A DNA stretch of 64,000 nucleotides from the NCBI GenBank assembly GCA_903937405.1, contig CAIZZE010000059.1, positions 14,075-78,074 of the forward strand, read 5' to 3'. The first letter of the stretch is position 1; every line of letters starts with the position of its first letter. A model generated the notes under the pieces. It searched no databases and was not told the DNA's origin. It was given only the letters and a program-made list of their open reading frames with translations. Positions 1,922 to 36,746 of this stretch are shown piece after piece. The stretch comes from an uncultured Alphaproteobacteria bacterium. GTDB lineage: Bacteria > Pseudomonadota > Alphaproteobacteria > Rickettsiales > UBA1997. The position numbers and the translations under genes are program-made.

Positions 1922-1963
1922 AATTTTTTATTTTAATCGTAGCAATTTAATGTCACTTATAAG

Positions 1964-2080
1964 CTTGGCGACAACCTACTCTCACTGGACATAAAGACCA
2001 AATACCATCGGCGCGACGTACGTTTCACTTGCGAGTTCGGAATGTGATCGAGTGGTTCCATACCGCTATCCTCACCAAGC
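1964..2080 (-). rRNA. rrf: 5S ribosomal RNA
   Basis: Reverse complement reads gcttggtgaggatagcggtatggaaccac...ccgaactcgcaagtgaaac...gcgccgatggta...gagagtaggttgtcgccaag. It is flanked by complementary aatttaatgtcactt / aagtgacattaaatt processing stems. Confidence 0.9.
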
Positions 2081-2211
2081 CAACAAGTGACATTAAATTA
2101 TAATAATCGATAACTAGAGTAATACCTGCTATTTCAATTGTGTTGTTTATCTCAAGATCCTTACGAATCTTTAATTCGAGCTAGTGTATATTATACCACA
2201 CATAGTTCAAA

Positions 2212-4978
<2,767 letters not shown>

Positions 4979-5853: not shown

Positions 5854-6462
5854 TTATTCAGCCTCAACTACTTCTTCTTTTTTCTTTTTAGATGACTTTT
5901 TTGGTTTTTCAACTTGAGCAACTGCTTCCTCAGAATTTTCTACAACTTCTTCAGAGTTTTCATTTCTAGAATTAGTTTTTTTCTCAGCTTTCAAAAGTGC
6001 GCCGATTTCAGATTCACTTCTAGTTACAATCAAACGTACATCGAAATTAACTTCAGAATGCGGAGCAACTTTAACTGAGTAAATACCAATTTCTTTGATT
6101 GGTTTTTTCAAGAAAATGTCTGCACGTGAAATTACTTTTCCACCTACAACTTCATTAATTTTTGCAGCAATAACTGAAGAACTTACTGAGCCATAAAGTC
6201 TGCCATCGTCAGAAGCATTTTCGATAATGATAATGTCTTTGCCAACGATTTGGTCTTTAACTTCAGAAGATGACGCAAGATTTTTTTGATTTTCTTGTTC
6301 AAATTCAACCTTCTTAGATTCGAAGATTTTATAGTTATTTGCAGTAAAACAAATCGCTTTTTTTCCTGGGATTAGGAAGTTTTTCGCGTAGCCGTTTTTC
6401 ACTTCTACAACGTCACCAATTTTTCCCAAGTTGGAAATGGCGGTAATTAAAATAATTTTCAT
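5854..6462 (-). CDS. rplI: 50S ribosomal protein L9 with a Lys/Glu-rich C-terminal extension
   Basis: 202 aa. The N-terminus MKIILITAISNLGKIGDVVEVKNGYAKNFLIPGKKA is typical bL9. The tail ...NSEEVVENSEEAVAQVEKPKKSSKKKKEEVVEAE is extra. Confidence 0.9.
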   Translation of the reverse strand: MKIILITAISNLGKIGDVVEVKNGYAKNFLIPGKKAICFTANNYKIFESKKVEFEQENQKNLASSSEVKDQIVGKDIIIIENASDDGRLYGSVSSSVIAAKINEVVGGKVISRADIFLKKPIKEIGIYSVKVAPHSEVNFDVRLIVTRSESEIGALLKAEKKTNSRNENSEEVVENSEEAVAQVEKPKKSSKKKKEEVVEAE

Positions 6463-6473
6463 GATCCGATTAA

Positions 6474-6809
6474 TTAGATAGTTGCTAGATCTTTTTTGAT
6501 TGGAGAAATCAAAGCCAAATGGCGAGCTCTTTTAATTGCATTCGCAAGAGCTTTTTGTTTTTTAACTTCAACATTAGTAATTCTGCTTGGAATAATTTTG
6601 CCTCTTTCGGACAAGAATTTATTCAACAATTTTAAATTAGTGTAGTTGATTTCAGAAAGAGGAATGTCGCGAAGTGGACAAGATTTTTTCTTTCTGATAA
6701 AAACGCTTTGGTTAACCAAAGAGATTTTGATATAGCCTTCCTCAGTATTCTGAGTAGCGCTGGCGTTATTATTGGTGTTTTTATTTTTATTAGCAGTTCT
6801 AGCAACCAT
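6474..6809 (-). CDS. rpsR: 30S ribosomal protein S18 with an Asn-rich N-terminal extension
   Basis: 111 aa. The core KKSCPLRDIPLSEINYTNLKLLNKFLSERGKIIPSRITNV matches bS18. Confidence 0.85.
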   Translation of the reverse strand: MVARTANKNKNTNNNASATQNTEEGYIKISLVNQSVFIRKKKSCPLRDIPLSEINYTNLKLLNKFLSERGKIIPSRITNVEVKKQKALANAIKRARHLALISPIKKDLATI

Positions 6810-6817
6810 GATACTCC

Positions 6818-7228
6818 TTAAACTTCAAATTGAACTTGATCCAAAACCAAATCTGTTTTGCTTGGCTCTTTCTTGGCGGCAACTTTGCCAGCCTTATAAT
6901 CTTTAGCATTACCAGAAACAAAAAGAGGAGACTCTTCTTGGTGAGCTTCAACTGAGAAAGTCATGTTTCTAATGATGTCTTCGTTGAAACCCATAACGCG
7001 GTTAAGTTCTGCAACTGCTGCATATTCAGCATCGATGTTTAACAAAATATAATGTCCGCGAGAATTTTTCTTAACTTTATAAGCTAAGTTTCTAAGTCCC
7101 CAATATTCTTTGGAAATGACCTTTCCTTTACCGTCGGTAATAATCTTGGAAAGCTTTGTAGTTAAGGCGTCAACGTCTTCGGCGGTTAAATCTTGCCTAG
7201 CAATAAAAACGGTCTCGTAAAGAGGCAT
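6818..7228 (-). CDS. rpsF: 30S ribosomal protein S6
   Basis: 136 aa starting MPLYETVFIARQDLT... It is first in an rpsF-rpsR-rplI arrangement. Confidence 0.9.
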   Translation of the reverse strand: MPLYETVFIARQDLTAEDVDALTTKLSKIITDGKGKVISKEYWGLRNLAYKVKKNSRGHYILLNIDAEYAAVAELNRVMGFNEDIIRNMTFSVEAHQEESPLFVSGNAKDYKAGKVAAKKEPSKTDLVLDQVQFEV

Positions 7229-7333
7229 AAGTAAAAGTTTTTAAATTGAAAATTAATTGCTTTATTTGTCAGCAGCTAAAAATTGGGAGCGGCACAAAGT
7301 ATTTACCGGTTTTTTAATTGCAAGATAATAGTT

Positions 7334-7438
7334 GATTTTAGATTTAGGATTTAGAATTTAAAATTTAAGATTTGAAATTTAGCTTGTAAAATCAACACTT
7401 GCGGCAAATCATTAAATTCTAAATCTTAAATCTTAAAT
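7334..7438. repeat. heptamer arrays: 7 x RATTTRR (7334-7382) and an inverted 4 x YTWAAAT (7411-7438) ending 1 nt before the smpB ATG
   Basis: Read directly: gatttta gatttag gatttag aatttaa aatttaa gatttga aatttag, then attaaat tctaaat cttaaat cttaaat. The first array is enclosed by the 10-bp stem gttgatttta / taaaatcaac. Confidence 0.6.
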
Positions 7439-7439
7439 A

Positions 7440-7874
7440 ATGCAAATCCTTAACCGCAAAGCACATTTTAATTTTGCCATCGAAGAAGAAATCGAAGCTG
7501 GCATCATGCTGCTTGGAAGTGAAGTAAAATCAATTCGCGAAGGCAAAGCCAATATTTCCGAGGCTTATATTGCCGACATTAAAGGCGAGCTTTTTTTAAT
7601 TAATTGTAATATCAGCGAATATAAAGGCGCTAATAAATTTAATCACGCGCCGAAAAGACAACGCAAACTTTTACTTCACAAAAAACAATTAGATAAAATC
7701 ACCGGAAAAATGCAGGTTCAAGGTTACAGCGCCTTACCAATGAAAATATTTTTCAACAAAAAGAATTTTGCAAAAGTAATTGTCGGAATCGGACGCGGAA
7801 AAAAACTTTTCGACAAGCGCGAGTCAATCAAAAAACGCGATGAGAACCGCAGAGCGCAACGCGGCGAAGAATAA
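7440..7874 (+). CDS. smpB: SsrA-binding protein SmpB
   Basis: 144 aa. The length and sequence blocks (GSEVKSIREGKANISEAYI, KRQRKLLLHKKQL) are typical of SmpB. Confidence 0.9.
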   Translation: MQILNRKAHFNFAIEEEIEAGIMLLGSEVKSIREGKANISEAYIADIKGELFLINCNISEYKGANKFNHAPKRQRKLLLHKKQLDKITGKMQVQGYSALPMKIFFNKKNFAKVIVGIGRGKKLFDKRESIKKRDENRRAQRGEE

Positions 7875-7899
7875 ACAATTCACCAATTAATTGTAAAGA

Positions 7900-9978
7900 A
7901 TGAGCATCCAAACTCTACTTCAACCTCTTTCCACATTAAAACGCGTCGGCCCAACAATAACTGATTTTTTAGCCCGCTTGGTTGGAGATGACAAAATTTT
8001 TGATTTATTGCTTCATAAACCAGTGCGCGCCGAAAAAATCATGTTAAGCCCTCGCCTTTTTGAAGTGCCAAATGACAGTCTTGTTGTCATCAAAGCCAAA
8101 GTTGAATCACACCTAAAACCAGCAACCTCGCGCCAGCCTTACAAGGTTATTTGCTATACGCCAAGCGGCTATGTAAATTTGGTATTTTTCAAAATTTTCC
8201 CCAGTCAAATTGCAAAAATGTCAATTGGCTTTGAAATTGCGATTTTAGGAAATTTACAAAAAATTGCTGGCGAAAATCAAATCGTTCATCCGCAAGAAAT
8301 TTTACCAGTAAAAGAAATTGAAAAGCTGCCAAAAATTAATGCGATTTATCCTTTGGGTGCAGCGATTTCGCAAAAATTTATTACTCAAAAAATTCACGAA
8401 ACTTTAGCAAAACTTGAAGAAAATATCGAAGAATGGATCGATCACAATCTTTTAAATCAGCAACTCTGGCCTAGTTTTGTGACAGCTTTAAAAAACCTGC
8501 ATTATTTTGCGTTGGAAGAAAAAAATCGCGACAATTTGCATGAAACGGCACGCAAACGCTTGGCTTATGATGAGCTTCTAGCTTGGCAAATCGCGACTCT
8601 GCTCGCAAAATCGCAATCTGGAGAAAAGAAAAAATTTCATAAACCAGAAAAAAATCTTGCCCAAAAATTTCTTATTTCACTTCCTTTTGAACTTACAATC
8701 GGGCAGTCCAAAGCTATTCAAGAAATTTCCTCCGAAATCAATTCTGATAAAAAAATGTTGCGCCTTTTACAAGGCGATGTTGGAAGTGGAAAAACTGTGG
8801 TGGCAATCGCCAGTTGCCTTAACAGCATTTCACAAGAAAAACAAACTTGTGTAATTGCACCAACAACAGTTTTAGCAAAACAGCATTTGACTTACTTCCG
8901 CAAGCTTCTGGAAGGCAATGAAATCAGAATTGAACTTCTTACTTCCGCCAATACAAAAAAACAAAAAGCTAAAATTCTTACCGATTTGATCGAGGGAAAA
9001 ATTGACATTTTAATCAGCACTCACGCGGCTTTGGAAGATGATGTAAAATTTAAAAAACTGGGTCTGGCAATTATCGACGAACAACATCGTTTTGGCGTAA
9101 TGCAACGTTTAAAATTAGTTGAAAAAGGCCAAGATGTTGATGTTTTATTAATGAGCGCAACCCCTATTCCGCGCAGCCTCATGATGGGTTTATATGGCGA
9201 TATGGATATTTCAATTTTGAATGAAAAACCAAAAAATCGTCAACCAATTGAAACTCTGGTAATGTCAGCAAAAAAAATTGCCGATGTTTATCAATCCATA
9301 AAACGCGCGGTTGCGCGCGGTGAAAAAATTTATTGGATTTGCCCAGCAATTGAAGAATCTGAAGAAGTTCAACTAGTTAGCGCTAAACAAAAATTTAGCG
9401 AATTATCCGAAGTTTTCGGCGCTGAAAATGTTGCGCTACTTCACGGAAAAATGAAAGAAAGTGAAAAAGAAAAAGTAATGAATGAATTTTCTAAGTGCGA
9501 TGGAAGCTTGAAAATATTGGTTTCAACTACCGTGATTGAAGTTGGAATTGATGTTCCTGAAGCAACGGTAATTTTAATTGAAAATTCCGAAAATTTCGGA
9601 CTTTCACAACTTCATCAGCTTCGCGGTCGCGTTGGCAGATCGGATAAAAAATCTTTTTGTATTTTACTTTACGGCGAAAAATTTGGTGTAAATGGCCGCA
9701 AAAGATTGAGCATTTTACGCGAATCAAATGATGGATTTTTTATTGCTGAAGAAGATTTAAAAATCCGCGGAAGTGGCGATTTACTTGGCACCAAACAAAG
9801 TGGTTTTCCCGAATTTAAAATTGCTGATTTAACTTTTGACACTGATTTATTGAAAATCGCCCATAAAAATGCCGAACTAATTTTGTATCACGATCAAAAA
9901 CTGCAAAGCAAAAAACATCGCAACCTGCTGCGACTTTTTAATTATGACGATTGTTTGAGGATGATTAATAGCGGCTAA
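7900..9978 (+). CDS. recG: ATP-dependent DNA helicase RecG
   Basis: 692 aa with Walker A GDVGSGKT, DEQHRFG (DExH), and QLHQLRGRVGR in the helicase C domain. Confidence 0.9.
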   Translation: MSIQTLLQPLSTLKRVGPTITDFLARLVGDDKIFDLLLHKPVRAEKIMLSPRLFEVPNDSLVVIKAKVESHLKPATSRQPYKVICYTPSGYVNLVFFKIFPSQIAKMSIGFEIAILGNLQKIAGENQIVHPQEILPVKEIEKLPKINAIYPLGAAISQKFITQKIHETLAKLEENIEEWIDHNLLNQQLWPSFVTALKNLHYFALEEKNRDNLHETARKRLAYDELLAWQIATLLAKSQSGEKKKFHKPEKNLAQKFLISLPFELTIGQSKAIQEISSEINSDKKMLRLLQGDVGSGKTVVAIASCLNSISQEKQTCVIAPTTVLAKQHLTYFRKLLEGNEIRIELLTSANTKKQKAKILTDLIEGKIDILISTHAALEDDVKFKKLGLAIIDEQHRFGVMQRLKLVEKGQDVDVLLMSATPIPRSLMMGLYGDMDISILNEKPKNRQPIETLVMSAKKIADVYQSIKRAVARGEKIYWICPAIEESEEVQLVSAKQKFSELSEVFGAENVALLHGKMKESEKEKVMNEFSKCDGSLKILVSTTVIEVGIDVPEATVILIENSENFGLSQLHQLRGRVGRSDKKSFCILLYGEKFGVNGRKRLSILRESNDGFFIAEEDLKIRGSGDLLGTKQSGFPEFKIADLTFDTDLLKIAHKNAELILYHDQKLQSKKHRNLLRLFNYDDCLRMINSG

Positions 9979-9986
9979 TCTTCGCG

Positions 9987-10040
9987 CCCAAAGCTTATAC
10001 ATGAAATTTTTCCTGATAAATTTCATGTATAAGCTTTGGG
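9987..10040. terminator. perfect 23-bp stem / 8-nt loop hairpin between convergent recG and the orphan operon
   Basis: cccaaagcttatacatgaaattt-ttcctgat-aaatttcatgtataagctttggg. There is no clear U-run on either side. Confidence 0.5.
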
Positions 10041-10160
10041 CTCCCTACAATTTCAGAATCATCTTTAAAACAAGATTCACTGTTTCATCAATTTTTTCTT
10101 AGTTAAACTTTGAGAAGCCTCAACACTAAATATTGACTGAAAAACTTCATTTTATTCCTT

Positions 10161-10535
10161 CTATGAATAATAGTCTAAGGTTCGACCTGTATAATTATTT
10201 AGGATTTTACTAATATTTTGTTGTGATTTTTCTCTCTCTACTGGTGTCTCAAGATCACTATAAATAACAAAGAATTCAAAATGATGATCTTTTTTGCTTA
10301 TGACAAAAGTACGAATTGGGAGTTTTAACAATTCAACCTTAGCTTTAATAAGATTTTCATTTTTTACCATAGCACTAGAAGATAATAGCAACTCAATGTA
10401 TCTATCAGACCAATTTCCCTCGATGCTATCTTTAGAATAAGTTGGCAAATATTTTCTGTTTAATGCGACAATTCTCTTCTCATCGATAATTACGATGCAG
10501 TAAGGTTGGTTGTAAATTTTATTACTTTTTTTCAT
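10161..10535 (-). CDS. hypothetical protein (orphan)
   Basis: 124-aa ORF. No motif I recognise. It is last in a tightly packed minus-strand cluster. Confidence 0.45.
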   Translation of the reverse strand: MKKSNKIYNQPYCIVIIDEKRIVALNRKYLPTYSKDSIEGNWSDRYIELLLSSSAMVKNENLIKAKVELLKLPIRTFVISKKDHHFEFFVIYSDLETPVEREKSQQNISKILNNYTGRTLDYYS

Positions 10536-30930: not shown

Positions 30931-31677
30931 ATGACTGAAATAAAAGCTGAAGAAAAAGGAATCAGAATTGCAAAAGTAATCGCCCAAGCTGGATATTGCT
31001 CGAGAAGAGAAGCGGAAGAAATGATTTTGGAAGGCCGCGTTAAAGTTAATGGCGAAGTTATTACAAGTCCTGCAACTTTTATTACGGATCATTCAATAAA
31101 AATTGATGATAAATTAATTAATGCCAAACAACCAGTGCGTTTGTGGCTTTTTCACAAGCCGGAGGGAGTTTTAACAACGTCAAAAGATCCGCATAATCGC
31201 AAAACTGTTTTTGATTTATTACCCAAAAACATGCCGCGTACGGTGACGGTTGGAAGATTAGATTTTAACACCGAAGGGCTTTTGCTTTTGTCCACAAGCG
31301 GCGAGCTTGCGCGCTACATGGAATTGCCGAAAAATAAATGGATCAGAAAATATCGCGCTCGCGTTTTTGGAAAAGTTAATCACGAAAGATTAAAGAAATT
31401 AGAAAACGGAATTACCGTTGAAGGAATTAGATATGGTTCAATTAAAGTTGAAGTTGAAGTTGAAAAAAACTCAAATTCCTGGCTAAAAATTTCACTCGAA
31501 GAAGGCAAAAATCGCGAAATCAGAAAAGTTATGGAACATCTAGGATTAAAGGTAAACCGCCTAATCCGCGTTTCATTCGGTCCTTTTACTTTAGGTAATT
31601 TAGCAGTTGGCGATATTAGAGAAGTTACAAAAGCGGCGCTTAGAAGCTCGTTTCCGGATATCGTGGCAAAAGGGTAG
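30931..31677 (+). CDS. pseudouridine synthase, RsuA/RluB family (S4 domain + catalytic domain)
   Basis: 248 aa: S4 block RIAKVIAQAGYCSRREAEEMI, and catalytic Asp in VGRLDFNTEGLLLL. Confidence 0.85.
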   Translation: MTEIKAEEKGIRIAKVIAQAGYCSRREAEEMILEGRVKVNGEVITSPATFITDHSIKIDDKLINAKQPVRLWLFHKPEGVLTTSKDPHNRKTVFDLLPKNMPRTVTVGRLDFNTEGLLLLSTSGELARYMELPKNKWIRKYRARVFGKVNHERLKKLENGITVEGIRYGSIKVEVEVEKNSNSWLKISLEEGKNREIRKVMEHLGLKVNRLIRVSFGPFTLGNLAVGDIREVTKAALRSSFPDIVAKG

Positions 31678-31984
31678 ACGGCAATGCACCGAGAGTTTGA
31701 ATATCATATTCTCCGCCATAGCCTGTGATCTTTAGAGCCATAAGACTTCAGACCATTTGATTGTTTTTGCAAACTTTATTGCGAACTCATCTTCACATCT
31801 CCTCCGACCACTGTAGCGCGAAGCGTACCGAAAATAAATTTCATAAAAATAAAACTGACAATCACTTCCTAGGAAAGGGATGCAATTTGCGAATTTTTTG
31901 TTCAAAGGCGTAGTTGAATTCTTTAAAAATAAAAAAATTGGATAATTTTCTATAAAGGATGTTATGCGAAGCCTTGATAAAACC

Positions 31985-32009
31985 AATCAAAACTCGGTGA
32001 ACGTGAAGC
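31985..32009 (+). repeat. short direct repeat flanking the KilA-N/DUF2971 islet (copy 1)
   Basis: aatcaaaactcggtgaacgtgaagc versus aatccgaaattcggtgaacatgaaatgc at 33925-33952. The shared cores are tcggtgaac and tgaa. Confidence 0.4.
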
Positions 32010-32038
32010 GGAGATTTGGAGAATGTTGCTTGCAAAAA

Positions 32039-32938
32039 TTAAGATTTTCTAAACGGAATTTCAGAGCATTTAACTTTTACATTCTTATAACCGAACTCTC
32101 TTAGCATATAATCAACCCAATGCTTTGCTGCTTTCTGATCACTCACTGGACCAATAATTATTTCTTCAATAGCGTTTTCTATGATAGCCGGATCTTCCTC
32201 AAAAAGCTTGATGTGAGCTTTGCCAGGCGCATGGAAATGAAGTTTTTTGCCGCTATTTTTTGGAATCAGGATCACTATTCTTCTTTCTTGCTCTTCGTGA
32301 AAACCTCTGTGTTTAACAAACAAAATAGGAATAAAAGATATGGTCATTAGTTCCCTTATTTTCTTATCTTCCTCTTTCGACATAACTTCTTTTTTGCGGA
32401 GTTTTTCTACAATTTTTATCCAATCATCGGCAGATATGGATTGTTTAAATTTATCAATCTCAACTTTTAATGAGTTGTCTTTTTGAAACATTTTATAATC
32501 ATCTTCAGATTTTGAATAATATCTCACATTTTCATCTAGATCAGCTATCAGAATTTGATCTTTGTCTTCTTGTTTCCAATTTTTTAATACCTCTAACAGA
32601 GCGTTCTTTTTAAACTTGATAGCGTAAGATCCATAGCCCCGCCATTGACTAAGTAATCCATCATTTGAGATGTGCTCTTCGTTAGTAGTTGAGAAACAGA
32701 CAAAGAATACCCCCTCTAATAACTTCCACCTATCCTCGAACAAAAATTTTAAACCATCCTCAGAACGATTATTCTGCTTCATCCATTCTTGTAGGTTTTT
32801 TACAAATAGATCGTTTCCCAATTCAATTTCCGAAGAATCATTACTAGCAAAAACATCAGTCGCCCAAAGACACTTGTTTTGCAAAATTCCCTGAAGACCT
32901 GCTTCGCTTGTATAATGAAAAAGAATTTCTTCGCTCAT
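32039..32938 (-). CDS. DUF2971-like protein
   Basis: 299 aa. The N-terminal LFHYTSEAGLQGILQNKCLWATDVFASNDSSE and C-terminal KHRGFHEEQERRIVI fit the DUF2971 pattern from memory. Confidence 0.55.
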   Translation of the reverse strand: MSEEILFHYTSEAGLQGILQNKCLWATDVFASNDSSEIELGNDLFVKNLQEWMKQNNRSEDGLKFLFEDRWKLLEGVFFVCFSTTNEEHISNDGLLSQWRGYGSYAIKFKKNALLEVLKNWKQEDKDQILIADLDENVRYYSKSEDDYKMFQKDNSLKVEIDKFKQSISADDWIKIVEKLRKKEVMSKEEDKKIRELMTISFIPILFVKHRGFHEEQERRIVILIPKNSGKKLHFHAPGKAHIKLFEEDPAIIENAIEEIIIGPVSDQKAAKHWVDYMLREFGYKNVKVKCSEIPFRKS

Positions 32939-32944
32939 TTTTGT

Positions 32945-33763
32945 TTAATTAATTAATTTTTTTAGCTGATCACTTGCCAACAGCGACTTCATCTGCGAAA
33001 TAGCAATCTCATTCAGATTTTTTAATCTCTCGCCTTGCGATAAATTTTGTTTGATCAAAACCGAATTAATGCTCTCCAAATTTGTCATCACAACCAACTG
33101 TTCTAAGGTTGCATTATCTCGTAAATTTCCCTCAAGATCAGGATTTTCTTTTTTGAATTCAGTGGCGGTTTTTCCAAACAAAGCAACATTCAATAAATCG
33201 GCTTCATTGGCGTAAATCGTTGATATTTGCTGTTTGGAAAGAGTTTTGGGAATTAGATTTTCTTTAATGGCATCAGTATGAATGCGGTAATTTATTTTCG
33301 CCAAAGTGCGCTGCAAATTCCATTCCAGCTTGAGGCGATTATTTTCATCCTCTTTGAGTCGCTGGAATTCTTTAACTAAATAAAGTTTAAATTCTGCAGA
33401 AACCCAAGAAGCGAATTCAAAAGCGATATCTTTGTGGGCAAAAGTTCCACCTGTTTTACCAACTTTAGAAATAATCCCAATCGCATCAGTATTTTCTATC
33501 CATTTACTAGGAGAAAGAACAAAGGCATTTGCTCCGGCTTCTTGCCAAAAGGAGTCGAATTCGACCCCTTTAAAATTTTGATTATTAATTTTTTCCCATA
33601 GACCAAGAAACTCGATGGTATTTTTTGATCTCATCCAATTCTTTACTAAATCTTTTGGTTCATCGGGATTTTTATGACGAGCAATATCTGTTAGCGAAAT
33701 GTAATCGCTGCTACTGGCTTTAAGTATGGAAATTTGTAATTTTTTGATGGTGATTTTCTTCAT
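32945..33763 (-). CDS. KilA-N domain DNA-binding protein
   Basis: 272 aa. It has the blocks YISLTDIARHK...NWMRSKNTIEFLGLWE and GGTFAHKDIAFEFASWVSAEFKLYL, followed by a coiled C-terminal half. Confidence 0.6.
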   Translation of the reverse strand: MKKITIKKLQISILKASSSDYISLTDIARHKNPDEPKDLVKNWMRSKNTIEFLGLWEKINNQNFKGVEFDSFWQEAGANAFVLSPSKWIENTDAIGIISKVGKTGGTFAHKDIAFEFASWVSAEFKLYLVKEFQRLKEDENNRLKLEWNLQRTLAKINYRIHTDAIKENLIPKTLSKQQISTIYANEADLLNVALFGKTATEFKKENPDLEGNLRDNATLEQLVVMTNLESINSVLIKQNLSQGERLKNLNEIAISQMKSLLASDQLKKLIN

Positions 33764-33785
33764 ATTTTTCTTTTGGGTTTAGTTC

Positions 33786-33813
33786 TTAATTATGGCGGAT
33801 TCGCCATAATTAA
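33786..33813. promoter_or_regulatory. perfect 12-bp inverted repeat (ttaattatggcg-gatt-cgccataattaa) 22 nt upstream of the KilA-N start
   Basis: Read directly. Operator-like dyad symmetry lies in the putative promoter region of the islet operon. Confidence 0.45.
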
Positions 33814-33924
33814 AATAATTTTTATAAGTGGTGAGACGTAATTTTAATTGCCATTAGAGTACTGAACAACACAAAAAACAACTCGCAAAATCTGCAAATG
33901 AATTTGTATTTTTTTCAAAAGTAT

Positions 33925-33952
33925 AATCCGAAATTCGGTGAACATGAAATGC
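33925..33952 (+). repeat. short direct repeat flanking the KilA-N/DUF2971 islet (copy 2)
   Basis: See 31985-32009. A second shared pair (aagacttcRga ... cctccgMccact) occurs at 31742-31812 and 33964-34021. Confidence 0.4.
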
Positions 33953-34047
33953 TTTAGAAAATCAAGACTTCGGAAGGTGTCGGAGAAAAGTTCGCAAAAA
34001 GAGGTCGCTTCCTCCGCCACTTGAGCTTATTTAAAATTCATCTTCAA

Positions 34048-34725
34048 TTACCTAATCCCTAGAATCTTGTGCGTTTGTAGTGATAAGAAATATCCGCCTT
34101 CTTCGCATAAGCGCGTTGTATATTCTAAATTTTCTTTGTTTTTAGTGGCATCATATTCATCCATTGGTTGGAGATAAATGGGAATGGGAAATTTTGATTG
34201 GCCGACTTCGGCGAGTTGTTGGTAATTTTTGTGGGTTTTGGAAATTATGAATTTTAGGGCGTTGAGGCGTGGGAGTAAGTCGGGTCTGATTTGGTGATAT
34301 TTTTCGTTGGTGATTTTTGGAGAGCAGATGATTTTTATTTCTGGTGGTAAGTCGCGATAAATGGTGCCGTTAGTTTCGATTTGAACGAGGAAATTTAATT
34401 TTACTAATTCTGCACAAAGTTTTTCAATTGGCTGGCGTAAAGGCTCTCCGCCTGTGATTACGATTAATTTTCTGACAATTTTTCCATCGGAATTTTTTGA
34501 AAGCTTGATAGTTTCTTCGATAATTTTTTCTAAAGAAAAATTTTGATAAGATTCAAATTCAGTATCACAAAAATCGCAGGCTAAATTACAGCCACCAAGG
34601 CGGATAAAGACGGAAGGATGACCAGCGTAAGGGCCTTCACCTTGAAGAGTTGGAAATATTTCTTGAATATCGAGAAAAGAGCCGTCGTGAAGTTCTGGTT
34701 TTAAGATTTTATTTTTACCAAACAT
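34048..34725 (-). CDS. queE: 7-carboxy-7-deazaguanine synthase (radical SAM)
   Basis: 225 aa with the GEGPYAGHPSVFIRLGGCNLACDFCDT (CX3CX2C) cluster motif. Confidence 0.8.
   Translation of the reverse strand: MFGKNKILKPELHDGSFLDIQEIFPTLQGEGPYAGHPSVFIRLGGCNLACDFCDTEFESYQNFSLEKIIEETIKLSKNSDGKIVRKLIVITGGEPLRQPIEKLCAELVKLNFLVQIETNGTIYRDLPPEIKIICSPKITNEKYHQIRPDLLPRLNALKFIISKTHKNYQQLAEVGQSKFPIPIYLQPMDEYDATKNKENLEYTTRLCEEGGYFLSLQTHKILGIR

Positions 34726-35255: not shown

Positions 35256-36746
<1,491 letters not shown>

Follow-up and report, generated by a model that had tools for sequence, protein, structure and literature searches.

A mini-islet of candidate defence genes between rluB and queE of an uncultured alphaproteobacterium, with a covarying palindrome inside its KilA-N gene

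Introduction

The DUF2971 family has been predicted to belong to the H-Y-E clade of ADP-ribosyltransferases (ARTs), related to DarT and AbiGi (PMC12522546), and one of its members is Aristaios, which on lactococcal plasmids acts as an abortive-infection system of a single gene (PMC11381338). Here we analyse an islet of two genes, one encoding a KilA-N protein that matches the PADLOC candidate PDC-S22 and the other a DUF2971 protein, which lies between rluB and queE in a 64,000-nucleotide (nt) stretch of DNA from an uncultured alphaproteobacterium (assembly GCA_903937405.1, contig CAIZZE010000059.1, positions 14,075 to 78,074), referred to throughout as the window. PDC systems are candidates nominated by genomic association.

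The locus reads as a miniature defence islet of known kinds, combining PDC-S22 with an ART gene of the DUF2971/Aristaios family, and its unexpected part is a palindrome that covaries within the KilA-N gene. We consider it probable (roughly 0.6) that the islet is a horizontally acquired mini-island lacking an integrase, in which two independent single-gene modules of anti-phage type are stacked in one transcription unit. This reading is favoured because the islet is an insertion relative to related lineages, because its parts recur beside the 3' ends of tRNA-Ser genes, and because its two gene slots are exchanged independently.

Results

Insertion between rluB and queE

The rluB-like (30931-31677, plus strand) and queE-like (34048-34725, minus strand) genes of the window are convergent, and the 2.37-kb stretch between them contains two open reading frames (ORFs) on the minus strand, the first encoding the KilA-N protein of 272 amino acids (aa) and the second, after a gap of 6 nt (32939-32944), the DUF2971 protein of 299 aa. 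The non-coding flanks of 361 nt and 284 nt hold no credible ORFs. An earlier sequence-only reading had given the genes, the 6-nt gap and the position of an upstream dyad just as found here, and the domains were assigned by Pfam and the coordinates confirmed.

31663 to 34044, no strand: inserted islet of about 2.38 kb between convergent rluB and queE, delimited by the limits of homology to empty sites
32945 to 33763, minus strand: KilA-N gene, 272 aa, PADLOC candidate PDC-S22 (Pfam, PADLOC, PHROG, AlphaFold2 model)
32039 to 32938, minus strand: DUF2971 gene, 299 aa, predicted H-Y-E ADP-ribosyltransferase (Pfam, invariant residues, AlphaFold2 model)

In related loci, designated by L numbers, queE and rluB are separated by only 60 nt (L171/L172, with queE 88% identical and the rluB region 92% identical at the nucleotide level) or 4 nt (L174, with queE 80% identical), and both retain the synteny of the window, CHMI-queE on one side of the junction and rluB-peptidase C26-GshA on the other. 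The homology of the window to these empty sites ends at 34045 and restarts at 31661, and because of this break the insert is placed at about 31663-34044, including the last four rluB codons; the encoded rluB C-terminus (31662-31677) is VAKG in the window, as compared with INKS and FKK in the empty-site relatives. The segment is thus a true insertion relative to related lineages. No tRNA gene is present at the empty sites of L171/L172 and L174, and in the islet itself there is no anomaly in G+C content, no tRNA called by ARAGORN, and nothing returned by Rfam at the gathering threshold or at E<5 except noise.

Recurrence beside tRNA-Ser genes

The same parts are found in other genomic settings. 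The whole islet is present in L002 at 82% nucleotide identity in a different context, and the DUF2971 gene is present in L001 together with 350 nt of the non-coding DNA downstream of it (element R) at 88% identity. Together with the empty sites, in which the junction check proposed by the sequence-only reading found queE and rluB nearly adjoining, this bears out its suggestion of an acquired miniature element. Wherever the close DUF2971 subfamily occurs outside the rluB site (5/5 distinct loci), an intact tRNA-Ser gene is situated directly downstream of the DUF2971 gene, with its 3' end toward the gene; the anticodons differ (UGA in L001, GGA in L002, GCU in L003, GGA in L177/L178 and UGA in L181), and the tRNA lies 68 nt after the DUF2971 stop codon in L177/L178 and 84 nt after it in L181. 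This adjacency was not found for distant DUF2971 genes. No integrase or recombinase occurs in the islet or the flanks of the eight related loci, nor any other phage gene in any of the eight.

No intact tRNA gene adjoins the islet in the window, where there is only a decayed fragment (31680-31719) that lines up, in register, with the last 31 nt at the 3' end of the L001 tRNA-Ser(UGA) (24/31 identical, with the T stem broken) and at which neither ARAGORN nor Rfam calls a tRNA. Further tRNA-3'-like pieces (..CCTCCGMCCA) terminate the second flank repeat at 31801-31812 and 34010-34021, and CTCCGCCA, short and decayed, occurs with degenerate tRNA-like context at 31712-31719 and 34012-34019, the Y' repeat thereby having it in common with the tRNA fragment. 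We infer that the module normally resides at tRNA-Ser 3' ends.

31680 to 31719, plus strand: decayed tRNA-Ser 3' fragment abutting the rluB stop codon (alignment to L001 tRNA-Ser(UGA))
31688 to 32038, minus strand: conserved non-coding element R, downstream of DUF2971 (identity to L001 and L002)
31730 to 31812, plus strand: Y repeat (CTTTAGAG..AAGACTTCAGA..CCTCCGACCACT), ending in a tRNA-3'-end-like stretch and kept within R in L001 and L002
31994 to 32007, minus strand: downstream copy of the X motif, TTCACGTTCACCGA, placed identically in L001 and L002
33764 to 33998, minus strand: conserved upstream non-coding region, presumed promoter and leader (identity to L002 and L089)
33935 to 33948, minus strand: upstream copy of the X motif, TTCATGTTCACCGA, placed identically in L002, L089 and L169
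33952 to 34021, plus strand: Y' repeat (CTTTAGAA..AAGACTTCGGA..CCTCCGCCACT), queE-side end of the insert

The direct repeats of the two flanks, which the sequence-only reading had offered as att-like duplications, are present to within 1-3 nt of the positions it gave, and are att-like and apparently tRNA-derived. By alignment statistics within the window they are only marginal (49/1000 shuffles for X and 12/1000 for Y versus Y'), and a repeat search of the window returns many chance pairs that are as good; they are nevertheless accepted as real because they are kept at the same positions in other loci. TTCAYGTTCACCGA occurs exactly twice in the 64 kb, once in each islet flank and both times on the minus strand, and Y' matches the end of R in L002 at 90% identity over 31 nt. 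The most informative repeats, those that appear to derive from tRNA-Ser 3' ends, had gone unrecognised in that reading. The motif AAAAGTTCGMAA was rejected as a genome-wide repeat, with 3 matches against 5.4 expected.

Element R of the window is 78-80% identical to the L001 and L002 copies, and the conserved upstream region is 86% identical to L002 and 83% to L089, in contexts that differ. R has no Rfam match, and its interpretation as a structured RNA found no support (RNAalifold on four copies gave -20 kcal/mol across 298 columns, the covariation term being unfavourable). A small hidden ORF was rejected for both R and the upstream region, the copies being separated by frame-breaking indels.

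Several observations on these non-coding parts were made in passing. R is present twice in L002, bracketing an unrelated gene for a protein of 1173 aa (6316-9837, minus strand; R copies of 250-330 nt at 5943-6272 and 10026-10263) that lies beside tRNA-Ser(GGA) and is matched by nothing in Pfam, NCBIfam or PADLOC; this gene may be a further cargo of the same hotspot. In L169 a MITE-like insertion (resembling a miniature inverted-repeat transposable element) of 144 bp, with long terminal inverted repeats (GGCACTGTCGCAAATCAA...TTGATTTGCGACAGCACC; 2015-2159), interrupts the conserved KilA-N upstream region of this sister strain. The approximately 5 kb upstream of KilA-N in L089 (1-5000) are nearly free of ORFs of at least 70 aa and without Rfam match, and contain tandem degenerate copies of the Y-X flank motif as well as repeated AAAAGTTCG motifs; the L089 KilA-N gene itself has a 1-nt frameshift near its start.

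The two protein families

The KilA-N domain (PF04383) is recognised with E=5e-21 (75.1 bits against a cut-off of 23.8), and the protein is matched over its full length by PADLOC candidate PDC-S22 (E=3e-131, 434.6 bits, residues 2-270 of 272) and by phrog_2657, labelled 'transcriptional regulator' in PHROG. The family is very large and conserved to an unusual degree, with more than 8000 relatives, of which the best 120 are at least 70% identical and close to 274 aa in length; those with a source name, few in number, cover several phyla. Both Staphylococcus phage EW and satellite prophages of Streptococcus have homologues 59% identical to the window protein, situated between a repressor module and an integrase, and the neighbours in 80 metagenomic KilA-N loci are often restriction-modification parts (ResIII/DEAD in 8; also N6_Mtase, Eco57I, PLD nucleases and HsdS) and otherwise housekeeping genes. 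The AlphaFold model (predicted local distance difference test score, pLDDT, 84.5) has as its best match in the PDB the protein DdrC (probability 1.0, E=8.5e-4, with low template-modelling scores), a dimer that binds DNA and combines an N-terminal winged-helix domain with a helical bundle at the C-terminus. A sequence search of the PDB with the KilA-N and DUF2971 proteins returned nothing.

The DUF2971 domain (PF11185) is detected in the window protein at a borderline score (22.4 bits against a cut-off of 22) and in 18/18 of its close homologues, at best with E=1.9e-7. Across 18 sequences, which range down to 32% identity, the residues H8, Y102 (and Y105) and E216-x-E218 never vary, so that the ART catalytic motifs H (I), Y (II) and ExE (III) of PMC12522546 are all represented, and an N-terminal Tox-ART-HYD1 signal is present in 17/18 members of the subfamily. 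The sequence-only reading could name no assigned function for DUF2971, for which the prediction of an ADP-ribosyltransferase has been published (PMC12522546); its suggestion of defence-type genes agrees with the PADLOC and Pfam assignments to PDC-S22 and DUF2971/Aristaios. The AlphaFold2 model is confident (pLDDT 87.7). More distant relatives, at 22-32% identity, are found on 54 viral contigs and on many enterobacterial plasmids, and a scan of a genome-contig collection gave no close relative, the best being 36% identical. No macrodomain (DarG-type antitoxin) was found near DUF2971 in Pfam scans, its only neighbour being KilA-N.

Compared with L179, a locus in which rluB is 99% and KilA-N 96% identical, both ends of the DUF2971 gene and its flanks are 90-100% identical, whereas the centre of the gene (window 32331-32830; approximately residues 37-200, with helical inserts) is 51-73% identical. 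This pattern indicates, at the sequence level, a mosaic or diversifying allele of the sort typical of defence genes.

A palindrome inside and upstream of the KilA-N gene

Two palindromes are associated with the KilA-N gene of the window.

33786 to 33813, minus strand (extended TTTTAA...TTAAGA at 33782-33817): upstream palindrome with perfect 12-bp arms
33548 to 33571, minus strand: internal palindrome, within the part of the gene that codes for KilA-N residues K65-F72, sense AAAGGGGTCGAATTCGACTCCTTT

The upstream dyad, TTAATTATGGCG-GATT-CGCCATAATTAA, lies 22 nt from the KilA-N ATG, is unique in the window, and has 0 matches in shuffled sequences even when 3 mismatches are allowed. The attention that the sequence-only reading had drawn to it was well placed, the outer arms being conserved in L002, L089, L169 and L119. 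Furthermore, an internal palindrome of 24-32 nt, centred on GAATTC, is present in 83/83 family genes as 38 distinct 24-mers (the genes examined including L089-L168, L002, L169, L175 (3699) and L176 (3202)). Its two arms change in step, so that the encoded peptide at residues 65-72 covaries: KPLEFEGF is encoded by AAACCCCTCGAATTCGAGGGGTTT, KLVEFDQF by arms with ..CTGG..CCAG.., KVVEFDHF by arms with ..GTGG..CCAC.., and NVTEFSNI by AATGTTACTGAATTCAGTAACATT. Across 81 distinct 42-mers, 93.3% of cells are paired, as compared with 77.8% in shuffles and 23-63% in slid controls, and cells changed on both sides number 146 against 38 expected; the observed values are reached in 0/500 shuffles. In the KilA-N model the segment encoded by the palindrome is a low-confidence loop.

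At least 11 other loci also have palindromes of the same class ahead of the ATG, at a distance of 20-100 nt, with arms that differ from those of the internal palindrome of the same locus. The upstream dyad of the window equals, except for 2 substitutions (30/32), the internal palindrome of the L181 allele (TTTTAATTATGGCGAATTCGCCATAATTAAAA, L181 3503-3532), whose KilA-N protein is 73% identical to that of the window, and to judge from its sequence the window dyad is a member of this family-wide class. No description of a KilA-N palindrome was found in the available literature. The dyad was rejected as a terminator; it was flagged as such only on the plus strand, where nothing is transcribed into it, and has no U-run on the sense strand.

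The full-length KilA-N gene of L165 (4444-6084) comes after three N-terminal gene fragments in tandem (residues 2-64, 2-95 and 2-99), each fragment having its own version of the palindrome and stopping just past it. On its sequence, this arrangement looks like serial allele replacement at the palindrome.

The palindrome may serve as a binding site for a KilA-N dimer, as an RNA or DNA hairpin, as a recombination breakpoint, or may be a quasipalindrome produced by template switching. We tentatively propose, as a possibility that falls short of even odds, that the GAATTC palindrome of every PDC-S22 gene, with its optional upstream copies, is a functional hairpin, cruciform or operator read by KilA-N, such that selection on the nucleic acid would dictate residues of a surface loop (the pairs P..G, G..S, L..Q, V..H and Q..L), and that the same site would act as a breakpoint for the exchange of alleles and of neighbouring defence genes. 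If true, a very widespread defence-candidate gene would carry a self-referential element of control and exchange that has not been described before.

The alternative that the palindromes are without function, being quasipalindromes kept symmetric by template-switch (hairpin-templated) mutation, with the upstream dyad as debris of recombination between KilA-N alleles, is somewhat less likely than this proposal. It would accommodate the difference in arms between the two palindromes of one locus, the match between the window dyad and the L181 internal palindrome, and the tandem fragments of L165, each ending just after a palindrome. Nor do the non-Watson-Crick cells show a clear wobble bias once sequence dependence is considered: the sense-strand counts of G.U (61) and A.C (14) lean toward RNA, with few columns and shared ancestry dominating them. 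Set against this are the occurrence of the palindrome in all 83 genes, from Alphaproteobacteria to phages of Firmicutes, with an invariant centre, and the similar distance from the start codon that upstream copies keep in many loci. The palindrome also uses codons that are otherwise avoided, the arms in the window containing GTC, GAC and TCC where the rest of the gene has GTC for 0/9 Val and GAC for 0/12 Asp and only 14% of codons ending in C. Finally, the surroundings of the window dyad have no significant similarity to the KilA-N 5' coding region; with the dyad removed, the alignment score is reached by 467/1000 and 43/1000 shuffles, which lends no support to the upstream region as a decayed 5' KilA-N fragment.

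Two gene slots

The sequence-only reading had taken KilA-N and DUF2971 for a possible dedicated two-component module of the defence or addiction type. This idea fares poorly in the neighbourhood comparison: DUF2971 is present in 0/80 sampled KilA-N loci, and the neighbours of 78 distant DUF2971 genes are heterogeneous, with no constant partner. Genes of the close DUF2971 subfamily always follow another gene, with a gap of at most 10 nt or an overlap (7/7 distinct loci), and this gene is KilA-N in 4/7 (the window, L002, L179/L180 and L181) and a 348-aa Fic protein in 3/7 (L001, L003 and L177), the latter a full-length match to SoFic of PADLOC (E=1e-49). The sequences switch from KilA-N to Fic at a point 12 nt ahead of the DUF2971 ATG. 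The downstream slot is variable too: L169, at the rluB site (queE 96% and KilA-N 97% identical), has a frameshifted CxxC..EH gene instead of DUF2971, and in L089 (KilA-N 92% identical) KilA-N is followed by a gene of the beta-lactamase fold. The simplest reading of these arrangements is that KilA-N and DUF2971 are not an obligate pair and that two gene slots would be refilled independently. A type II toxin-antitoxin operon with a small co-inherited antitoxin was rejected, since the upstream partners are large (272-348 aa), come from two unrelated families, and mostly occur without DUF2971.

Functional coupling stays under consideration because the DUF2971 gene is constantly and tightly joined to some upstream gene. 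In a true two-component module, the upstream KilA-N or SoFic-type Fic protein would be the sensor, regulator or neutraliser of a DUF2971 effector, and the two would work only as a pair. The lack of an upstream region of its own in all seven close DUF2971 loci fits such a module, and an ART toxin would normally need restraint; AbiGi, a related ART family, operates with two genes. We nonetheless regard it as unlikely, given that the KilA-N and Fic partners have unrelated folds, that KilA-N is without DUF2971 throughout the 80 sampled loci and precedes other genes in L169 and L089, that distant DUF2971 genes have no constant neighbour, and that Aristaios acts as a single gene (PMC11381338).

Less likely again, and indeed improbable, is a regulatory relic of a prophage or satellite, in which KilA-N would be an ordinary phage regulator or antirepressor left behind with a cargo gene and without a defence role in this host: although KilA-N homologues adjoin repressor and integrase in phage EW and the satellites, PHROG labels the family as a regulator, DUF2971 relatives occur on viral contigs, and the module is tRNA-adjacent, none of the eight loci has a further phage gene or an integrase, both ORFs of the islet are intact with KilA-N 96-97% conserved among strains, and the KilA-N family is often found inside restriction-modification loci and not in phages alone.

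Other features of the window

The window has its 16S rRNA gene unlinked from the 23S-5S pair (1963-4974 and 35256-36744), about 30 kb lying between the two on one strand; Rickettsiales-like genomes typically show this arrangement. The closest named matches to the proteins of the window are from metagenome-assembled genomes (MAGs) of 'Rickettsiales bacterium'.

Discussion

The reading of the islet as an acquired stack of two independent modules can be extended to a mechanism. Both genes would be transcribed from the conserved upstream region, and a KilA-N dimer would bind both GAATTC-centred palindromes associated with its gene, the upstream and the internal one, thereby setting its own level and that of the downstream gene; DNA binding by KilA-N is predicted because of the DdrC-like model and the palindrome class, and the 'self-regulated' character that the sequence-only reading gave to the pair would be of this kind. 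DUF2971 would be a DarT/AbiGi-like ADP-ribosyltransferase which, on infection, modifies DNA or protein and so aborts phage growth in the manner of Aristaios, a member of the family. The island would have arrived with a scrap of the flank of a donor tRNA-Ser gene, by recombination rather than site-specific integration, since the target has no tRNA gene. The affiliation with defence is suggested by the PDC-S22 match, the DUF2971/Aristaios family with its invariant residues, the alternative partner SoFic, the restriction-modification neighbours, the phage and satellite position, and the mosaicism of DUF2971, and from these sequence relationships we infer a defence function for the islet. In sum, the mobile-element and defence parts of the sequence-only reading were largely right, and its possible two-component module of KilA-N and DUF2971 was not supported.

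A number of results weigh against this interpretation. The defence role ascribed to this DUF2971 subfamily and to PDC-S22 is deduced from family membership; no validation or mechanism of PDC-S22 was found in the literature searched, and PDC-S22 is a candidate only. The DUF2971 model has no significant fold match in the PDB (Foldseek; none with E<0.3), its best ART-fold match, Tpt1, appearing only at rank 13 with a probability of 0.18, and no Lactococcus match was obtained when the protein was compared with plasmids by tblastn. No sigma-70 promoter consensus was found in the upstream region. The gene within 10 nt upstream, or overlapping, in 7/7 DUF2971 loci could mean functional coupling and not stacking. 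Furthermore, the islet is present on every contig that encodes an identical rluB or queE protein (lake metagenomes; MAG GCA_903940335.1); it is fixed in the sampled population, and its current mobility is at most putative.

Read as a stacked mini-island, the locus is a clean natural example of a very small defence cargo that spreads without a recombinase of its own, with empty, filled and allele-swapped variants of the site, and with slots refilled by PDC-S22 or SoFic and by DUF2971 or another gene. It draws attention to two unvalidated families, PDC-S22 and the alphaproteobacterial DUF2971 ADP-ribosyltransferase. The palindrome gives direct access to the question of what KilA-N recognises, in a gene present in thousands of bacteria and phages, and it is a caution for analyses of protein covariation, as here the covariation is imposed by DNA.

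Comparison with known systems

The KilA-N gene has the size, architecture and full-length hidden Markov model match of PDC-S22 and is likewise found in restriction-modification loci and in accessory positions of prophages and satellites; it differs in that PDC-S22 is a single-gene candidate, whereas the gene in the window heads a two-gene unit. Compared with Aristaios (316 aa), the DUF2971 protein (299 aa) is of the same Pfam family and conserves the ART-type H, Y and ExE; this comparison is by family and description, and the window protein belongs to a distinct alphaproteobacterial subfamily, always behind another gene and facing tRNA-Ser. DarTG resembles the locus to the extent that DUF2971 is reported to be similar in sequence to DarT (PMC12522546) and that an abortive ART effector is proposed, and differs from it in that the window has no macrodomain antitoxin, a KilA-N or Fic neighbour, and large helical inserts in the DUF2971 fold. 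SoFic, a single-gene Fic-domain system (PADLOC/DefenseFinder), is absent from the window; because it occupies the slot upstream of DUF2971 in L001, L003 and L177, this slot is shown to hold defence-type genes.

With tRNA-gene islands and defence hotspots the locus shares the position at a tRNA-Ser 3' end (5 loci), the tRNA-3'-like repeats at both ends, and a variable cargo at one site (L002 versus L177; the window versus L169 and L179). It differs from them in having no integrase in any locus, a size of only about 2.4 kb, and, in the window, a target without a tRNA gene. For the palindrome, the nearest parallel is provided by the iterons of the lambda origin within gene O, which are bound by the product of the very gene in which they lie. 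While the window has a single site with an optional upstream site, no indicated replication function and binding that is predicted, the likeness lies in a dyad site placed in a tolerant, low-confidence loop, which varies between relatives and yet remains symmetric.

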